Shown here: piece after piece, positions 1,259 to 17,808 of the stretch | Layout: the number at the start of each line of letters is the position of its first letter | Position numbering within the stretch: position 1 is the stretch's first letter | Source of the DNA: Candidatus Latescibacterota bacterium | GTDB taxonomy: Bacteria; Latescibacterota; UBA2968; GCA-2709665 | Direction: 5' to 3' | Assembly: GCA_963667175.2 (NCBI GenBank) | Contig: CAXXXF010000006.1 | Location: forward strand, 480,001 to 544,000 | Length of the DNA: 64,000 nt | Program-made: the position numbers and the translations under genes | The notes under the pieces: model-generated | Seen by the model: the letters and a program-made list of their open reading frames with translations, nothing else | The model's database searches: none | What the model was told of the DNA's origin: nothing

Positions 1259-1403
1259 ATACACCTCCTTCACTTTGGAAGATGACTTATCCCCACCACC
1301 CTGCCATTCCAGTCCGTCTGCAATCTGCTGCGAAACAACAATCTGCGAATTTACATCTGAAAAACACCCGCAGTCTGCTCGACGTTCCACCCCCTCTCGG
1401 ACA

Positions 1404-1446
1404 CAAAAAAAGGGCCCACCTGTCCGGAAACCGGCAGCGCCCCGTT
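1404..1446 (-). terminator. Intrinsic terminator-like hairpin inside the leader of the OMP/TBDR operon
   Basis: Minus strand reads GGGGCGCTGCCGG-TTT-CCGGACAGGTGGGCCC followed by a T run. Confidence 0.6.
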
Positions 1447-1571
1447 AACACACTCCTGCTTCAAGCGTATGGAATTTATGATAAACGACTACGCGGTAGC
1501 AATTTAGCATAAGCCAACCATTTGACGCGTAGAATCGCCGTTATTGAGCGTAACCGCAGGATAATCGACAG

Positions 1572-1600
1572 AAGATATACAACATTTTCCGAGTTGTCAA
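1572..1600 (-). promoter_or_regulatory. Sigma70-type promoter
   Basis: TTGACA (1600-1595), 17-nt spacer, TATCTT (1577-1572). Confidence 0.65.
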
Positions 1601-1625
1601 CCCTTTTTCTCCTGAACCCCAGGAA

Positions 1626-2016
1626 TTCAAAAAATCACAACTCACATGGATAGACAGGATGGGCAGGATGAAAACCAAAGGCACAACAAAGGCACGAGAA
1701 AAAAAAAAACATCATAAACTACGAAATACGCGAAAAGACGCGAAAAAACACAAAAAACCAACACCGGAAACTACGAAATACGTGAAATACACGAAAAAGG
1801 CTACAACCCTGAATCATACACAAAAATAGAACTTACACGGATGGACAAAATGAAAAAAAAGCGACAAAAGCATGAGAAAACAAGCATCAGAAACTACGAA
1901 ATACACGAAAAGGCGCGAAAAAACGAAATATCCATGACTGAATCCCAGTAATTCAAAAAACCAGAACTCGCATGGGTAAACAGGATGGACAGGATAAAGA
2001 CCAGGAGCAGGACAAA
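1626..2016. repeat. A-rich modular repeat array 1
   Basis: Unit AACTCACATGGATAGACAGGATGGGCAGGAT at 1639, with a variant at 1965. Unit AAACTACGAAATAC(G/A)CGAAA occurs about three times. The same units recur at 17.1-17.6 kb. Confidence 0.8.
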
Positions 2017-2142
2017 TGCTCACGATTCCGGGCGGAATCGATGGCTCCTTACCTCCGTGGGACGCGCAGCCTTCCGGATCGACGTTACACGCGCGTTGTG
2101 ACGCGAGACCCGAATCGGCAAGCCTGTACCGTCTATCGGCGC

Positions 2143-3012
2143 CTAGGACAGGGTCTCGAGCACCGTTTCGCCGACGTCTGCCGGGCTGTTACAAACCCGT
2201 ATGCCCGCGGAGTTCAGGGCCGCGACCTTTTCCCCGGCCGTGCCCTTTCCGCCTGAAATAATGGCGCCGGCGTGCCCCATGCGCCTGCCCGGAGGCGCGG
2301 TCTGACCCGCTATAAAGCCGACCACGGGCTTCGGGAAGGAGCGCTTCACGTATTCGGCAGCCTGTTCTTCGGCGCCGCCTCCGATCTCGCCGATCATCAC
2401 AACGCATTCGGTATCCGGATCCTTCGCGAAGGCGTCGAGACAATCGATAAAGCTGGTTCCCGTTACGGGGTCGCCCCCGATACCCACGCACGTGGTCTGG
2501 CCGAGACCCAGGGCGGTCAGCTGGGCGACCGCCTCGTAGGTCAGGGTTCCGCTGCGTGAAATGACACCCACGTTCCCCTTCCGGTGAATCTCGGCCGGCA
2601 TGATCCCGATCTTGCATTTGCCGGGAGAGATGACCCCCGGACAGTTCGGACCGATCAGCCGGGTGGCGCGCGAACCGAGAAAGTGTTTGACCTTCACCAT
2701 GTCCAGCACGGGGATGCCTTCGCTTATACACACAACCAGGCTCAGACCGGCATCCGCGGCTTCCATGACGGCGTCCGCCGAAAAGGCCGCCGGCACAAAC
2801 ACGATCGATGCGTCGGCGCCGGTGGCGTCGACGGCGTCCGATACGGTGTTGAAGACCGGTACGCCCTCGACGCGGTGGCCGGCCTTGCCCGGCGTGACCC
2901 CGGCGACGATCCGCGTGCCGTAGTCCAGCATCTGGCGGGTGTGGAACGAGCCTTCGCTGCCGGTGATCGCCTGAACAACGACCCGAGTATTGTTATCAAT
3001 GAAAATGCTCAT
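2143..3012 (-). CDS. sucD: Succinyl-CoA synthetase alpha subunit
   Basis: Motifs [27 protein letters not shown] and the phospho-His motif RMGHAGA. Confidence 0.98.
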
Positions 3013-3026
3013 TAAGAAACCCTTTA

Positions 3027-3130
3027 ATTACCAGGAGCAGCAAATAGTGGTCAGTGGTCAGGAAGAGCAGTTGTCAGCTTCCATTGATTCTCAGGAGCGG
3101 CAAATCGTCGACATCCAGGCCTCACCAGAG
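3027..3130. repeat. Dispersed CAGTGG/CAGC heptamer-based repeat element, copy 1 (uninterrupted)
   Basis: ATTACCAGGAGCAGCAAATAGTGGTCAGTGGTCAGGAAGAGCAGTTGTCAGCTTCCATTGATTCTCAGG... matches 9369-9420 joined to 10182-10205, and also 4250-4330. Confidence 0.8.
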
Positions 3131-3335
3131 AAGAGTGGGAGAATGTAAACGATACGGCGCTCCCCGTAACAAAACCCTTTCCGTCGTGCTTCCTCAAAAG
3201 TAGACGTAAGACGGGAGAGATTGCTCGCAGTATGCTGATGCTGCGCCGCTACGTGGGCGATTCGCGAATCGCCCCTGCAAGTGCCACGTCGGCGAGGCTT
3301 TCGTTCTTCGGTTCGGCCTTTCGGTTTCTGCTTCA

Positions 3336-3367
3336 AGCTGACGGCTGTTGGCTGAACGCTGACAGCT
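3336..3367. repeat. GCTGA heptamer-like tandem repeat, inverted relative to 4111-4141
   Basis: AGCTGACGGCTGTTGGCTGAACGCTGACAGCT. Confidence 0.5.
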
Positions 3368-3377
3368 ATTCCGGCAG

Positions 3378-4064
3378 TTACTGTCCCCCGGGTTTGACGC
3401 GTTCTTCGACGGCGCCGTCGGCCGTTCCGATAACGACGTGGTGGGCCAGGCCGACAAAGAGGCCGGACTCAACGACGCCGCAGATCGCCGCGATTCGCCG
3501 TTCGAGGTCGGCGGGATCGTTGATGACGCCGAAAGCGCAGTCCAGGACGTGGTTCCCGTTGTCCGTAACAAAAGCCCGGTTTTCCCGAACACGGAGACTG
3601 GCGCGGCACCCCAGGGCCTCGACCTGCAACCGTACGAACTGCCAGCCGAAGGGCACGACTTCGACGGGCAGAGGGAATTCGCCGAGCCGATTCTTGAGTT
3701 TGGATTCATCGGCAACGATGACTTCCCGGCGGCTGGCCGTGGCCACGAGTTTCTCGCGCAGCAGCGCGCCGCCTCCGCCCTTGATCAGATTGAAGGCGGG
3801 ATCGATCTCGTCGGCGCCGTCGATGGTCAGATCGATCCGGGCGGCCCGGGCGAAATCCGTAAGCGGGATCCCCTCGCGTTCCGCCTGACGCCGGGACTGT
3901 TCCGACGTGGGAATACCGTGAATCCGAAGGCCTTCCCGAACCCGCTCGCCCAGTCTTCGAATCGCAAAGTGCGCGGTGGATCCGGTCCCCAGACCGACGA
4001 TCATCCCGTCGTCCGCCAGGTCTGCGGCCCGTTCGCCTGCAAGCTGTTTCGGGTTGGCGGCCAC
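3378..4064 (-). CDS. rpiA: Ribose-5-phosphate isomerase A
   Basis: Motifs GLGTGST, DGADE, KGGGGALLREK, PVEV, TDNGN and GVVESGLF. GTG start chosen at 4064. Confidence 0.97.
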   Translation of the reverse strand: MAANPKQLAGERAADLADDGMIVGLGTGSTAHFAIRRLGERVREGLRIHGIPTSEQSRRQAEREGIPLTDFARAARIDLTIDGADEIDPAFNLIKGGGGALLREKLVATASRREVIVADESKLKNRLGEFPLPVEVVPFGWQFVRLQVEALGCRASLRVRENRAFVTDNGNHVLDCAFGVINDPADLERRIAAICGVVESGLFVGLAHHVVIGTADGAVEERVKPGGQ

Positions 4065-4067
4065 GTT

Positions 4068-4330
4068 ATTACCAGTGGTCAGTGGGCAGTGGCAAGTGGT
4101 CAGCAAAAGCAGCGATCAGCATTCGGCGGTCAGCATTCAGCTTGAGTCAAAAGCAACCCATTGACGTCAACGCGGGGGCGTTTCGAGGGCAGGTGCCCTC
4201 GGTCCGGAATAAGGGGAAACCAGTGGTCAGAAAAGGCAGTGGCAAGTGGGCAGTGGACAGGAAGAGCAGTCGTGAGTTTCCATGTATTCTCAGGATCGGC
4301 GAATGGTCGACATCCAGGCTTCACCACGAA
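4068..4330. repeat. Heptamer repeat element copies 2/3
   Basis: ATTACCAGTGGTCAGTGGGCAGTGGCAAGTGGTCAG and AGCGATCAGCATTCGGCGGTCAGCATTCAGC. GGAAGAGCAGTCGTGAGTTTCCATGTATTCTCAGGATCGGCGAATGGTCGACATCCAGGC resembles 3061-3120. Confidence 0.7.
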
Positions 4331-4559
4331 TGAGTGGGTGGATGCAAACGACAAGGTGCTCCCATTTGCGGGAAATTTATCGATCCGCGAACCGAATCGC
4401 AATGACAATTAAGGGTGATAACACACCCGATCCGGCGTTCGTTCCCGGTCTGAGAAACGAAATCAATTGACATTCATGTCCGTATATATCATATATATTG
4501 CCAAGGCCGTTTGCGGTCGGCCGCACCAGTTCAGTCGAGCAACTGACACGGGAGGACAC

Positions 4560-9289: not shown

Positions 9290-9368
9290 CTTGACGGCTG
9301 TCCAGGAACGGACGGTTACTGAAATATGGGAGTCGTAAAGTGCCGTAAACCGGCGTTATCGCGGTCTT

Positions 9369-9420
9369 ATTACCAGCAGCAGTAAATAGTGGCCAGTGGC
9401 CAGTGATCAGGAAGAGCAGT
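9369..9420. repeat. Left half of the heptamer repeat element, split by the ORF-less intron (right half 10182-10205)
   Basis: ATTACCAGCAGCAGTAAATAGTGGCCAGTGGCCAGTGATCAGGAAGAGCAGT aligns with 3027-3071. Confidence 0.8.
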
Positions 9421-10181
<761 letters not shown>

Positions 10182-10183
10182 TG

Positions 10184-10675
10184 TCAGCTTCCATTTATTT
10201 TCATGTGCCAGAATGGTCTGCCAACGGTGTCGCGAAAGGCGTTGATCCGTCTGGCCGAAAAGGTCTTGAAAGTCCTCACAATTTCGGGTAAACGATGTCG
10301 AGGCGCATTCCTGGATGTAGGGGCAGGTTTCAAACCTGCCCCTACCCGCGGGACGTGTACAAGTGTGTGCGCCAGGATCAGGATGGCGTGCAGGGGGTTG
10401 GGCATCAATATCCGGAGGTCTATCTTCACGTGCGGATAATGGCGCGGCAACCCTTCCCAGGCAGCCTGCGTTAGTCGACCAATTTCGCTGTAGCGCATCG
10501 TGCCATTTATTACCTCACCAAACTCACACACACGATTCCGGGTGCAAATTGTGACAAAATACGCTCCAGGACGGCTGTAATCAAAACCCTTCAGGCGTAT
10601 ATTCCGACGGCGGGACGCAGACAGATTGCCGGTGGGCATCGATGGACCAACGATTGGGCGCTCAAACCCTTTCAT
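10184..10675 (-). pseudogene. Truncated REP-associated tyrosine transposase (RAYT, Y1 HUH family)
   Basis: RRNIRLKGFDYSRPGAYFVTICT and IVRTFKTFSARRIN are present. The HUH motif reads MPNPLH instead of MPNHxH. The ORF ends at PFWH, before the catalytic Tyr segment (normally WQRxYY/FxH). Confidence 0.85.
10317..10345. repeat. REP palindrome (GTAG type) inside the RAYT gene
   Basis: GTAGGGGCAGGTTT-C-AAACCTGCCCCTAC, perfect 14-bp arms. Confidence 0.85.
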
Positions 10676-10727: not shown

Positions 10728-12703
10728 GTAGAGTCGAGAGGTGGCGCGGTGGTGTAGGAGAGGCCTATCTGTTTCCGCCCCTTTCGTCTGGCGGTGCCTC
10801 AATAGCCGCTCCGCGCTCCGTTTCCACGTCCCGCTCATCGAACCGGACGTGCGGATTTACCGCATCCGGCTCTCGGACAAGGAGTCATGCGTTCGCCCAC
10901 GGAAGGTTGTGCGTCTGCACCTCCAGCCGGGTCAGGCCCAACGTATTGTAGAGGACCTCGTCAGGGAGACGGGACGTCCCCTTTCCCGGTATTCGGTACT
11001 TGTTGCACAACCACCAGCGGAGCCGTTGCCGGGTGTGGCTGTCCACACTCCGGTAGGCTTTGCTGACCGGACCAAGACGGAAGTAGTTGCCCCACCCTGT
11101 TAGCTTTCGGTTCAGGTGGGCAATCCGTTCTTGATGGTCTTTCAGCAGCCACCGCCGCGCCGTTGCCTCGCTGATGGCCCGGCAGATGTGCCGGATGGCC
11201 TTCTTTGACGGGCGCGTGCCGATATAGGCCTTTCCCGTCTTTGGTGAGTAACAGCGTTCGATGGTGTAGCCCAGAAAGTCAAATCGTCCTTCAGGAAGCG
11301 TGCATATGCCCGTCTTCTGCTCGTTCACCGTCAACTTGAGCGCCTTCATAATGGATCGCATCGCGCGCATCGCTTCTTTTGCGGTGCCGCGACAGCAGAT
11401 CACAAAATCGTCCGCGTAGTTGACAATATGAGCCTTCAGGCGTTGCTGATGTCCCCGAACCTGCCATCCCAGAATGAACCGCCGCATATACAGGTTCGCC
11501 AGCAGGGGCGAGATCGGGGCGCCTTGCGGTGTCCCCCTTCCCTGATCCTTGTTCGGCGTCGTTCGACGTTTGCGGCCCCGCTTGTCGGTCTCCTCAATCG
11601 GCGCGGTCAGCCACAGCTTGACCAGGCCCAGCATACGCCCGTCACTGATGCGACGCGCCACACATTTCATCAGCTCGGCATGCGGGATCGTGTCAAAGTA
11701 ACCGCTCAAGTCCGCGTCGATCACCTGCGTATGGCCACGGCTCACCAGACTGTGAACCGCCCTGATGGCGTCGTGCGCACTCCGTTTCGGACGGTACGCA
11801 TACTGCGCCGCTGGCAGGTCCGCCTCAAAGATCGGCTCCAATACCAGCATCGCCGCGGTTTGCACCACCCGATCTTTCACCGTCGGGATGCCCAGCGGCC
11901 TTTGCTTCCCGTTCGGCTTGGGGATATACACCCGACGGATCGGAGACACCCGATACGATTTGCTCCTTACGGCTTCCGACAGTTCGCCTAACCACCGCTT
12001 TTGCCCATATGACTCGATATCCGCAAACGTCTCGCCGTCCACGCCCGCCGCGCCGCCGTTGGCCTTGCAGCAGCGGTACGCATAAAGCAGGATGTCCTCG
12101 CGATACACCTTGTCATACAGCGCGTAGAATCGGTAGCCGGGCGATTCCTTCGCTTTGGCATGCAACGTCCTCTGCAACTTCCGAACCTTTTCCGGAGGTC
12201 TTAGGCTCATACCAATCTCCAGGCTCTCGCTCCTTTGACGTTGCCCTTGAACCAAGGCCCCTTTCCTCCGCCGGCATTACCCGGCTTCTCAGGTACTACG
12301 GGCCTCTCCGCCACCCCACGCGGCCCGGCCTGACCCTCACGGGCTGCCGGTTGGTGTCTCCACCACCGCCTGGGGCTTCCCGTGTTGCGTCGGAACTCCT
12401 TGTATACGTGCCTCCGCCACTACCCCGGCGGGACCGTTGGGTGCTCGCGTTGCCTGCTTCCCCAACGACGGCGGCCTTCCCCGAAATTCAGGCGGGTCGG
12501 CTCCCGCATTACCCTTTTCGAGGCCTGCGCAGCGTTCACTCACGTTTCGGCCCGCATACTCGCCAAGTCGCCTTGCGACCCTCTACACCGGAGGCTTCGG
12601 AGATGTCGTTTCCTACGTCCCCGCTCCGATTGCTACCGACTGTGGCAACACTTGTCGGGTGGGACTCTCACCCACTGAAGTTCCGCGCCTTTTCACGGCG
12701 CAC
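10728..12703 (-). mobile_element. Group II intron (IIB-like) with RT/maturase ORF, 1976 nt
   Basis: 5' GTGCG at 12703. Domain V with AGC triad at 10872-10840. 3' end ...CTCTAC at 10728. Internal RT ORF. Confidence 0.95.
10885..12210 (-). CDS. ltrA: Group II intron reverse transcriptase/maturase (no obvious HNH endonuclease domain)
   Basis: Motifs IPKPNGKQRPLGIP, DADLSGYFD, GTPQGAPISPLLAN, YADD, FDFLGY and X-domain GWGNYF. Start MSLRPPEK at 12210. Confidence 0.96.
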   Translation of the reverse strand: MSLRPPEKVRKLQRTLHAKAKESPGYRFYALYDKVYREDILLYAYRCCKANGGAAGVDGETFADIESYGQKRWLGELSEAVRSKSYRVSPIRRVYIPKPNGKQRPLGIPTVKDRVVQTAAMLVLEPIFEADLPAAQYAYRPKRSAHDAIRAVHSLVSRGHTQVIDADLSGYFDTIPHAELMKCVARRISDGRMLGLVKLWLTAPIEETDKRGRKRRTTPNKDQGRGTPQGAPISPLLANLYMRRFILGWQVRGHQQRLKAHIVNYADDFVICCRGTAKEAMRAMRSIMKALKLTVNEQKTGICTLPEGRFDFLGYTIERCYSPKTGKAYIGTRPSKKAIRHICRAISEATARRWLLKDHQERIAHLNRKLTGWGNYFRLGPVSKAYRSVDSHTRQRLRWWLCNKYRIPGKGTSRLPDEVLYNTLGLTRLEVQTHNLPWANA

Positions 12704-12737: not shown

Positions 12738-13268
12738 GAATTTGGGTTTGAGATGCGTCTTATTACGGGGAGATTTTTACAGTTTACATCATCCTGCTCT
12801 GGCGTAGCCGGGCATTGACGTCAACCAATTGTCGCACCCGCTAACAAAGCGCTACTTCCAGGTCCCACTCGTACGGTTCGCCGACCTCTAATCGTGTCAT
12901 CTATTTAACGCTCACCGTAATTGTCCTCACTATGAGTCCAACTTAACCGCGTATTCTTCAATCGTACCGTTGGATTTGTCCGCAACTTCCATACGAGGCG
13001 GTCTCCAGATATAACGGAAGCAAAAAGAGCTTCAGGATGAAGTAAGAAACGAATGAGCAAGGGCGGTGACGGATTTGCCGCGTTCACGCCATCTGCGTGT
13101 TGGGTACCGGGAGCACGGTAGCGCCGTGGCGTCAGGTTGCCCTGAATTCCGCTGTCGAAAGCACAAACGTCTTCCTGGCCATTGGTCGTTTCGATGCAAA
13201 CGTGAAGGCGAGGTCAGCACGTCGATGGGTTATCGAACACCCTTTGCCAGTTTTGAGAGCTATGTGGG

Positions 13269-17090: not shown

Positions 17091-17575
17091 TAAAAAAACT
17101 CACATGGATGGACAGGATGGACAGGATAAAAACCAAAAGAAAATGAAATTCAGAAACTACGAAACACGCGAAACACACGAAAAAACAAACAACGGAAACG
17201 ACAAAACACGCGAGATAAGCGAACAATGCCTGGCTGGACCCTTGAACTCATCTCACTGAAAAATCAAAACTCACATGGATAGACAGGACGGACAGGATAA
17301 AGGCCAAAAAGCGAGACAAAGGCACGAGAAAACGAACATCGGGAACTACGAAATACGCGAAACACACGAAAAAACGATCAGGATTTACAGGATTCGCAGG
17401 ATTAGAAACCAGGAGCAGGATGAAAACCGAAGAGCGAGACAAAGGCACGAGAAAACGAACATCAGAAACTACGAAATACGCGAAACACACGAAAAAACAA
17501 ACAACGCAAACGACAAAACACGCGAGATAAGCGAAAAGCGCGACAAAGGCGCGAGAACTGCACGAGAAAACGAGT
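17091..17575. repeat. A-rich modular repeat array 2
   Basis: Same units as 1626-2016. Near-exact internal duplications 17311-17375 ~ 17434-17498 and 17151-17224 ~ 17463-17535. Confidence 0.85.
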
Positions 17576-17808
17576 AACTGCAATCCACGAGAAAGCGCGG
17601 AACGGCAGTAAATCGATTCACCATAGACCGCACGTCGTCATCACGAACACCCCAAACCCCAACGTAACGTTAGCCAAACCGATTCGGGACGCTTCAAGGT
17701 CTTCGATATTTTCTCCGCTAATGTTATTGAAAATCAACCGATTATGCAACAAACACACCGGTTTTCATGAATATTTCAGGCTCTGGTTTTTTCCGAATTT
17801 TGCTTTTC

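Follow-up and report, generated by a model that had tools for sequence, protein, structure and literature searches.

According to one review, group II introns of bacteria seldom lack an ORF, and their target specificities are of three kinds, namely homing sites, terminators, and attC (PMC4424553). The closest precedent for the locus described here is the set of ORF-less families of Thermosynechococcus elongatus. As set out in the available sections of that study (PMC2882425), the ORF-less TeI3 introns form families F3–F6; F4 occupies a conserved position in ISEL1, an element of the IS200 family, and F3 is nested in other introns. Mobilization in trans was demonstrated there by assay. In each of the two systems, a single ORF deletion appears to have preceded diversification. 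Both contain near-identical ORF-less copies beside ORF-bearing relatives, and in both the families differ in EBS, and hence in target, with some in multi-copy mobile elements (PMC2882425). Unlike the T. elongatus families as far as that text describes them, the intron studied here has a 150-nt non-coding MITE as its target, rather than an IS or another intron; moreover, all three lineages of the genome sit on dispersed intergenic repeats, and no EBS2 pairing was found (PMC2882425). Mobilization in trans, an assay result in T. elongatus, is argued by analogy here.

RmInt1 of Sinorhizobium meliloti, together with its relatives, offers a second point of comparison. RmInt1 reportedly targets the IS element ISRm2011-2. 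In the portion of that work available, these introns, like the present one, combine a lack of the endonuclease domain (En) with residence in a multi-copy mobile element, and related introns have diverged in specificity. RmInt1 differs in having its own protein and a coding IS target, whereas the present intron is ORF-less and its target is a MITE.

The window analyzed here is a stretch of 64,000 nt (G000:C6:480001-544000) from a 5.52-Mb assembly of 18 contigs (G000). Our main reading, to which we give a probability of roughly 85%, is that an ORF-less group II intron of a lineage we call A1 homes to one point inside a dispersed MITE, R1, and that 3028–3169 is an unoccupied copy of this element. 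The features on which the argument draws are as follows.

3028..3169, minus strand: R1 MITE copy A, unoccupied (nhmmer E=3.3e-44; aligned with 23 other copies)
3061..3085, minus strand: predicted empty homing site (exact identity to the rejoined exons; 7 contiguous pairs with the EBS1 loop)
3085..3072, 3078..3072 and 3071..3061, minus strand: parts of the empty homing site, namely its 5′ exon side, IBS1 GCTGACA, and its 3′ exon side (insertion predicted between 3072 and 3071)
4229..4367, minus strand: R1 MITE copy C, unoccupied, with diverged IBS1 ACTCACG and junction 4271/4270 (nhmmer E=9.2e-36; alignment)
9368..9420, minus strand: occupied R1 copy, 3′ part, on the 3′ exon side (nhmmer model positions 102-154, E=8.1e-12)
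9421..10181, minus strand: 761-nt group II intron without an ORF, lineage A1 (Rfam RF02003 100.7 bits, cut-off 49; RF00029 40.9 bits, cut-off 40)
9960..9968, minus strand: EBS1 loop ATTGTCAGC of the A1 intron (alignment of five intron lineages; complementary to the 5′ exon)
10182..10205, minus strand: occupied R1 copy, 24-nt 5′ remnant, on the 5′ exon side (alignment; weak nhmmer piece 10182-10215, E=0.7)
10728..12703, minus strand: ORF-bearing intron of lineage B1, candidate source of RT/maturase in trans (Rfam RF02003 102.1 bits, RF00029 41.7 bits)
10885..12210, minus strand: intron-encoded protein of 441 aa, RT and maturase (Pfam RVT_1 and GIIM only; TIGR04416 358 bits, cut-off 300)

Rfam places two group II introns in the window, both on the minus strand. 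The first, at 9421..10181, runs from GTGCG to CTAC and lacks a long ORF. The conserved ends GUGYG and AY appear as GTGCG...CTAC in 26/26 full-length intron copies of the genome. Domain VI of A1, read directly from the sequence rather than from covariation, consists of the helix GAGCGGGATGTGG / CCACATCCCG-A-CTC with an unpaired bulged A at −7 and carries a distal insert of ∼70 nt. BLAST searches of the genome with the intron as query recovered eight A1 copies (identity ≥99.6%), five ORF-less copies of a lineage A2 (92% identity to A1), three ORF-less copies of A3 (91% identity to A1), six ORF-bearing copies of B1 (∼100% identity, including the window intron at 10728-12703), and four ORF-bearing copies of B2 (94.5% identity). 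The genome thus holds 16 ORF-less and 10 ORF-bearing copies, besides two intron fragments. The seven uninterrupted A1 copies show 0–4 differences per 761 nt, a near-identity that implies a recent spread, as judged from sequence divergence. The eighth (C13:174459-175517) is interrupted in domain IV by a 298-nt insertion with a 20-nt direct repeat on either side; the insert contains three TTGGACAGCA motifs. The genus is sponge-associated, and related introns are present in all 14 other species genomes searched (in one via a 38-nt match only). The EBS1 loops of the related introns in other species of the genus are different from that of A1.

Rejoining the exons of the intron at 9421-10181 gives, on the plus strand, GGAAGAGCAGT|TGTCAGCTTCCATT, and this sequence occurs letter for letter at 3061-3085, where the initial annotation had predicted an empty junction at 3071|3072. 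The longest exact run common to the empty site and the rejoined exons is 27 nt (3059-3085). Because the exons of the occupied copy rejoin to the exact sequence of the empty site, the earlier placement of the intron boundaries, with no target duplication, is correct. The flanks had also been said to match, and indeed the empty and occupied sites both lie within copies of the ∼150-nt repeat R1; the match is one of homology within a repeat family, not of chance. Two details needed adjustment. A repeat copy is present at 3027-3130, the extent first given, but the R1 copy is wider (3028-3169). Likewise, the description of the site as sequence-perfect holds from −14 to +11, where it is identical to the occupied copy of the window, but not at −15, where it has C and 8/8 occupied copies have A. 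A third copy had been noted near 4261-4295; it is the R1 copy at 4229-4367 on the minus strand, with its junction at 4270/4271 and ACTCACG in place of GCTGACA in the IBS1 region.

The terminal inverted repeats of R1 copy A lie at 3156-3169 and 3028-3039. The end of the copy is separated by 15 nt from the start codon, at 3012, of the gene for succinyl-CoA ligase alpha (2143-3012, minus strand, identified by Pfam), which lies downstream in the same orientation; the copy is flanked by AA and CA, not by TA. The occupied copy of the window is less complete: beyond its 24-nt remnant, the remaining 5′ part has been replaced by a truncated ORF. This ORF, of 163 aa, lies between the two introns (10184-10675, minus strand), ends where the R1 remnant starts, and has a GC-rich hairpin inside. 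It has no Pfam or NCBIfam match; we take it to resemble a truncated IS200/RAYT-type tyrosine transposase. Contigs of runs X2 and X15 join 10284 to 10539, omitting 254 nt of this ORF. The window further contains a diverged short form of R1 with the left hairpin only (12761-12848, plus strand, nhmmer E=1.9e-6), directly preceding the ORF-bearing intron and oriented oppositely to it, and a partial R1-like piece at 4071-4169 on the minus strand.

A profile search of the genome identified 24 copies of R1: 15 full-length and empty, eight occupied, and one short form lacking the middle. Seven of the occupied copies are split at model position 101|102, and the eighth is the window copy with its 24 nt on the 5′ side; the search also returned a few diverged half copies. 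The repeat had been described as multi-copy and intergenic, and these copies bear this out, lying between crudely called genes with one weak ORF call overlapping one copy. The enumeration of copies and their occupancy that had been suggested as a check places 8/8 A1 introns at one R1 position and none outside R1. R1 is ∼150 nt long and non-coding, with inverted-repeat ends of ∼12 bases (TTACGGGGAGCA... and ...TGCTCCTGGTAA) that pair over ∼12 positions in 18–22 of 22 copies; a few two-sided changes occur. In the alignment, TA flanks most copies. At one locus on contig C17, TA-R1-TA of G000 corresponds to directly joined flanks with a lone TA in the two closest congeners, G009 and G012, which marks TA as the target duplication. 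The reverse direction is seen as well, the flanks of at least three G009 copies directly adjoining in G000. Given these inverted-repeat ends, the TA duplication, and the empty sites in congeners, R1 is, on sequence criteria, a bona fide MITE that has been mobile in both species since their divergence.

R1 is present in 3/15 genomes of the genus, G000 counted. G009 has nine R1 matches, all uninterrupted, and its copies with a perfect site are all empty; R1 therefore predates the invasion. At the locus of copy A, 5/5 congeners have no R1 in the spacer that separates the succinyl-CoA ligase gene from that of ribose-5-phosphate isomerase; the spacers there are unalignable and so yield no exact empty site. 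Species-specific short repeats fill this spacer (3013-3377 in the window), among them ∼770 nt of tandem units in G001. R1 is not a conserved regulatory element. A role as promoter or terminator was considered and rejected, no sigma-70-like promoter and no terminator being found within R1; Rfam gave no match to it up to E=5 (region 1300-4500), and single copies fold no better than shuffled sequences (z=−1.8 and −1.1). Compared with MITEs of the IS630/Tc1-mariner type, R1 is likewise small and without an ORF, with inverted-repeat ends, TA duplication, and presence/absence between species. It departs from them in that no autonomous partner with matching ends was found in G000, a search for further R1-type ends paired at the spacing of an IS being negative. 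Separately, a 1.2-kb element with a DDE_3 (IS630-type) transposase occurs in three copies of ∼99% identity (C4:155914-157142, C16:161744-162972, and C16:164401-165623). Its ends are only loosely similar to those of R1.

Alignment of the five intron lineages locates the main differing block in a 9-nt loop closed by GACCCG/CGGGG. In A1, bases 3–9 of the loop ATTGTCAGC (TGTCAGC) are complementary to GCTGACA, the 7 nt at the end of the 5′ exon, and 8/8 copies form seven contiguous EBS1-IBS1 pairs (one copy by means of a G-U pair); base 2 of the loop can also pair with A, the base that opens the 3′ exon. Introns with the loop CCCATGGAT (A2, A3, and B2; 12/12 copies) stand after ATCCATG or GTCCATG, and the six with the loop CCTGAATTT (B1) after TATTCA or ATCTCA. 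On average, a loop forms 5.9 contiguous pairs with its own exon versus 1.4 across lineages. The A2, A3, and B2 introns home to a second repeat (…ATCCTGTCCATCCATG|TRAGTT), which offers 66 empty junction-like sites genome-wide, 54 of them with exact ATCCATG, often in tandem at ∼170–190 nt spacing. The target of B1 is a third repeat (…CTGAAATATTCA|TGAAAACCGGTG…) with 15 empty junction-like sites genome-wide. EBS1 loop and target thus covary across three lineages, and the dispersed repeat is a different one for each; as read from these pairings, this is the EBS1-IBS1 homing rule of group II introns. Among six introns inspected in other species, 3/6 match their own exons with 6–7 pairs and 3/6 do so poorly.

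Several further observations touch on these targets. Empty copies of the second repeat lie in the window at 1639-1660, 1830-1851, 17097-17118, and 17268-17289 (minus strand), and an empty copy of the third at 17755-17782 (minus strand). The third repeat tends to be found at a distance of a few hundred bases from the second, and a sequence like it flanks ORF-less introns in G002 and G009. One ORF-less intron of G011 (L008; G011:C5, locus ∼1459-2214) is 86% identical to A1 and has the same loop ATTGTCAGC. It lacks an IBS1 match at its site and is apparently within a gene, and no R1 was found in G011; it may represent ectopic retrotransposition or transfer.

Within R1, occupancy follows the IBS1 match. 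Leaving aside the short form of R1, which has no site, 8/16 pairing-competent copies are occupied versus 0/7 copies with 1–4 IBS1 changes, the latter including the copy at 4229-4367 (one-sided Fisher p=0.026, on small numbers). The earlier suggestion that a diverged IBS1 renders this copy immune fits these counts, within the limits of so small a sample. A match does not guarantee occupancy: eight pairing-competent copies are empty, and over the span compared, two of these (C6:325079 and C17:9189) do not differ from occupied sites. Nor is the 8-nt pairing alone sufficient to account for 8/8 introns in R1, since 138 further intact GCTGACAA words in the genome, counted on both strands, are all unoccupied. 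More of the target than IBS1 must presumably be read. A search for EBS2-IBS2 gave no shared-position helix of 6–7 nt between the upstream exon and the intron across lineages. One candidate EBS2, TCCAT at about intron position 308 and complementary to −13..−9, was rejected, as its pairing is broken at 5/8 occupied sites. All eight occupied sites have A at −13, −14, and −15, and four empty sites have G at −13. As for a replication-strand bias, GC skew shows no clear difference: within ±20 kb, a negative sense-strand skew is found for 5/8 occupied versus 3/8 empty pairing-competent copies, and the measure is noisy from contig to contig.

With no EBS2 partner found and 138 GCTGACAA sites untouched, A1 might instead read a structural feature of R1, either its long left-arm hairpin or a small hairpin with the insertion point in the loop, much as class C (IIC) introns do with terminators and integron attC sites. 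It would then be a hyperparasite with two borrowed engines, the RT of a sister intron for homing and the transposase of the MITE for reaching new loci. If true, the structural reading of a MITE would add another mode of targeting to those of bacterial group II introns; we regard it as doubtful. Resemblances to IIC introns as the available part of the review presents them (PMC4424553) include a protein without an endonuclease domain, a repeated non-coding target, and the lack of an EBS2 match; the nearest solved relatives of the sister-intron protein are also IIC enzymes (GsI-IIC RT, E=2.5e-54). In contrast to the IIC pattern given in the same text (PMC4424553), A1 inserts 22 nt beyond the R1 hairpin instead of immediately behind the stem-loop, has an IBS1 of 7 nt versus 3–4 nt, and targets a single family of sequences, not a structural motif. 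A1 follows the homing rule and lacks those IIC features that can be tested.

How the intron came to occupy eight copies of R1 could also be explained without homing. The intron might have been transferred from one R1 copy to another as DNA, with no RNA intermediate, through gene conversion or homologous recombination. Some 100 nt plus 50 nt of roughly 90% homology around the intron would allow this, and the dependence on a local match, with none of the seven diverged copies occupied, would fit recombination too. Yet recombination does not require the covariation of EBS1 with the target across three lineages and other species. The occupied copies also differ from one another at the junction-near variants −10, −12, and +5, which argues against long co-conversion tracts, and RT/maturase genes have been kept intact in 10/10 copies. 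We therefore consider spread of this kind improbable.

Still less probable is that the intron entered one R1 copy once and that a MITE transposase then spread the composite of ∼910 nt, even with R1 mobile, duplicating TA, and recently active in two species, and with IS630-type (DDE_3) transposase genes in the genome. The R1 flanks of the seven uninterrupted occupied copies are 88.9–96.1% alike (mean 91.4%), that is, they differ by 4–11% versus ≤0.5% for the introns within them. A tree built from 29 R1 copies calls for seven changes to account for the seven occupied rows, and its well-supported branches demand no fewer than four. The occupied copies are spread over at least four supported subgroups, each of which holds empty copies too and three of which hold copies of another species (G009), and the present tree already suggests that the closest R1 relatives of occupied copies are empty ones. 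Moreover, the 5′ part of R1 is reduced to 24 nt in the window copy, which therefore lacks the left end needed for transposition. Since the introns are near-identical while their R1 flanks are diverged and scattered in the tree, the intron entered pre-existing, already diverged copies; by this comparison of sequences, it did not ride one R1 copy that later multiplied.

It is hardly credible that 3071/3072 marks not a target but the scar of an old excision or an artefact of assembly: public contigs break inside the repeat and do not independently bridge the site, yet the same uninterrupted sequence is present in 15 R1 copies here and in nine G009 matches, none of the G009 introns inspected has this EBS1, and excision of group II introns from DNA is not known. 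The public-run data over the site are assembled Logan contigs, derived from one coded organism and from metagenomes of sponge, marine, coral, or unspecified origin. The contigs of runs X1, X2, X3, and X15 are those that break inside the repeat, one X1 piece ending at 3075; among the contig matches listed, none bridges 3071/3072 and none has a loose end there. An apparent intron-less allele of the occupied site, a 9420→10182 joint skipping exactly 761 nt in X1 and X15, was rejected as polymorphism: its shorter side is 19–21 nt and lies within the repeat, and other empty R1 copies are a possible source.

Homing of A1 into R1 would need a protein from elsewhere. All 16 ORF-less copies align to each other over their full length at 91–100%, and to ORF-bearing introns only at 1–454 and 610–761; in each, the ORF region is replaced by a common stretch of 155 unrelated bases in domain IV (455–609). 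This pattern points to one old ORF deletion, probably followed by diversification of the ORF-less lineages. The sister introns are a plausible source of RT/maturase acting in trans on A1, by analogy with T. elongatus. Their 441-aa ORF is intact, with YADD, in 10/10 ORF-bearing copies, and Pfam detects no endonuclease domain in the protein. Binding of the sister protein is not assured, since domain IV of A1 is unrelated to that of the ORF-bearing introns.

In the sequence of events we propose, A1 RNA would be transcribed within an occupied R1 copy and then spliced out. By rough gene calls, the nearest downstream gene is co-oriented for 18/23 R1 copies, often within 30 nt. Judging from these gene positions, the intron, lacking a promoter, is probably carried along in host transcripts and could be removed by splicing from an untranslated stretch. 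Splicing would use the RT/maturase of the ORF-bearing sisters, which have 10 intact copies, one of them adjoining at 10728-12703. The resulting RNP would reverse-splice into other R1 copies, with EBS1 TGTCAGC pairing with GCTGACA, and the insert would be copied into DNA with no target duplication. Priming by replication-fork strands is established for introns whose protein lacks an endonuclease domain, and because the protein here has no such domain, the same priming would apply. R1 copies with a changed IBS1 would escape insertion, and the site at 3071/3072 would be receptive to it. Because R1 lies between genes, insertions there break no gene. The proposal that the intron has specialized on a multi-copy intergenic repeat as a safe harbor agrees with this setting and with the presence of 8/8 A1 copies at the same point of R1.

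The search for literature combining group II introns with MITEs returned no description of such a pairing, and that for group II introns in sponge symbionts returned nothing related by title. What appears new is the MITE as target, the presence of three lineages on three repeats in one genome, and the retargeting of loops across the genus. With its 16 ORF-less and 10 ORF-bearing copies and three target specificities, this genome would be a second, richer natural system beside T. elongatus. R1 itself amounts to a natural experiment on target rules, offering occupied, empty, and diverged sites and single changes at −13 and −15. On our reading, A1 illustrates how one mobile element can reside within another and leave host genes intact, and is a clean new example of the known harmless spread of ORF-less introns.
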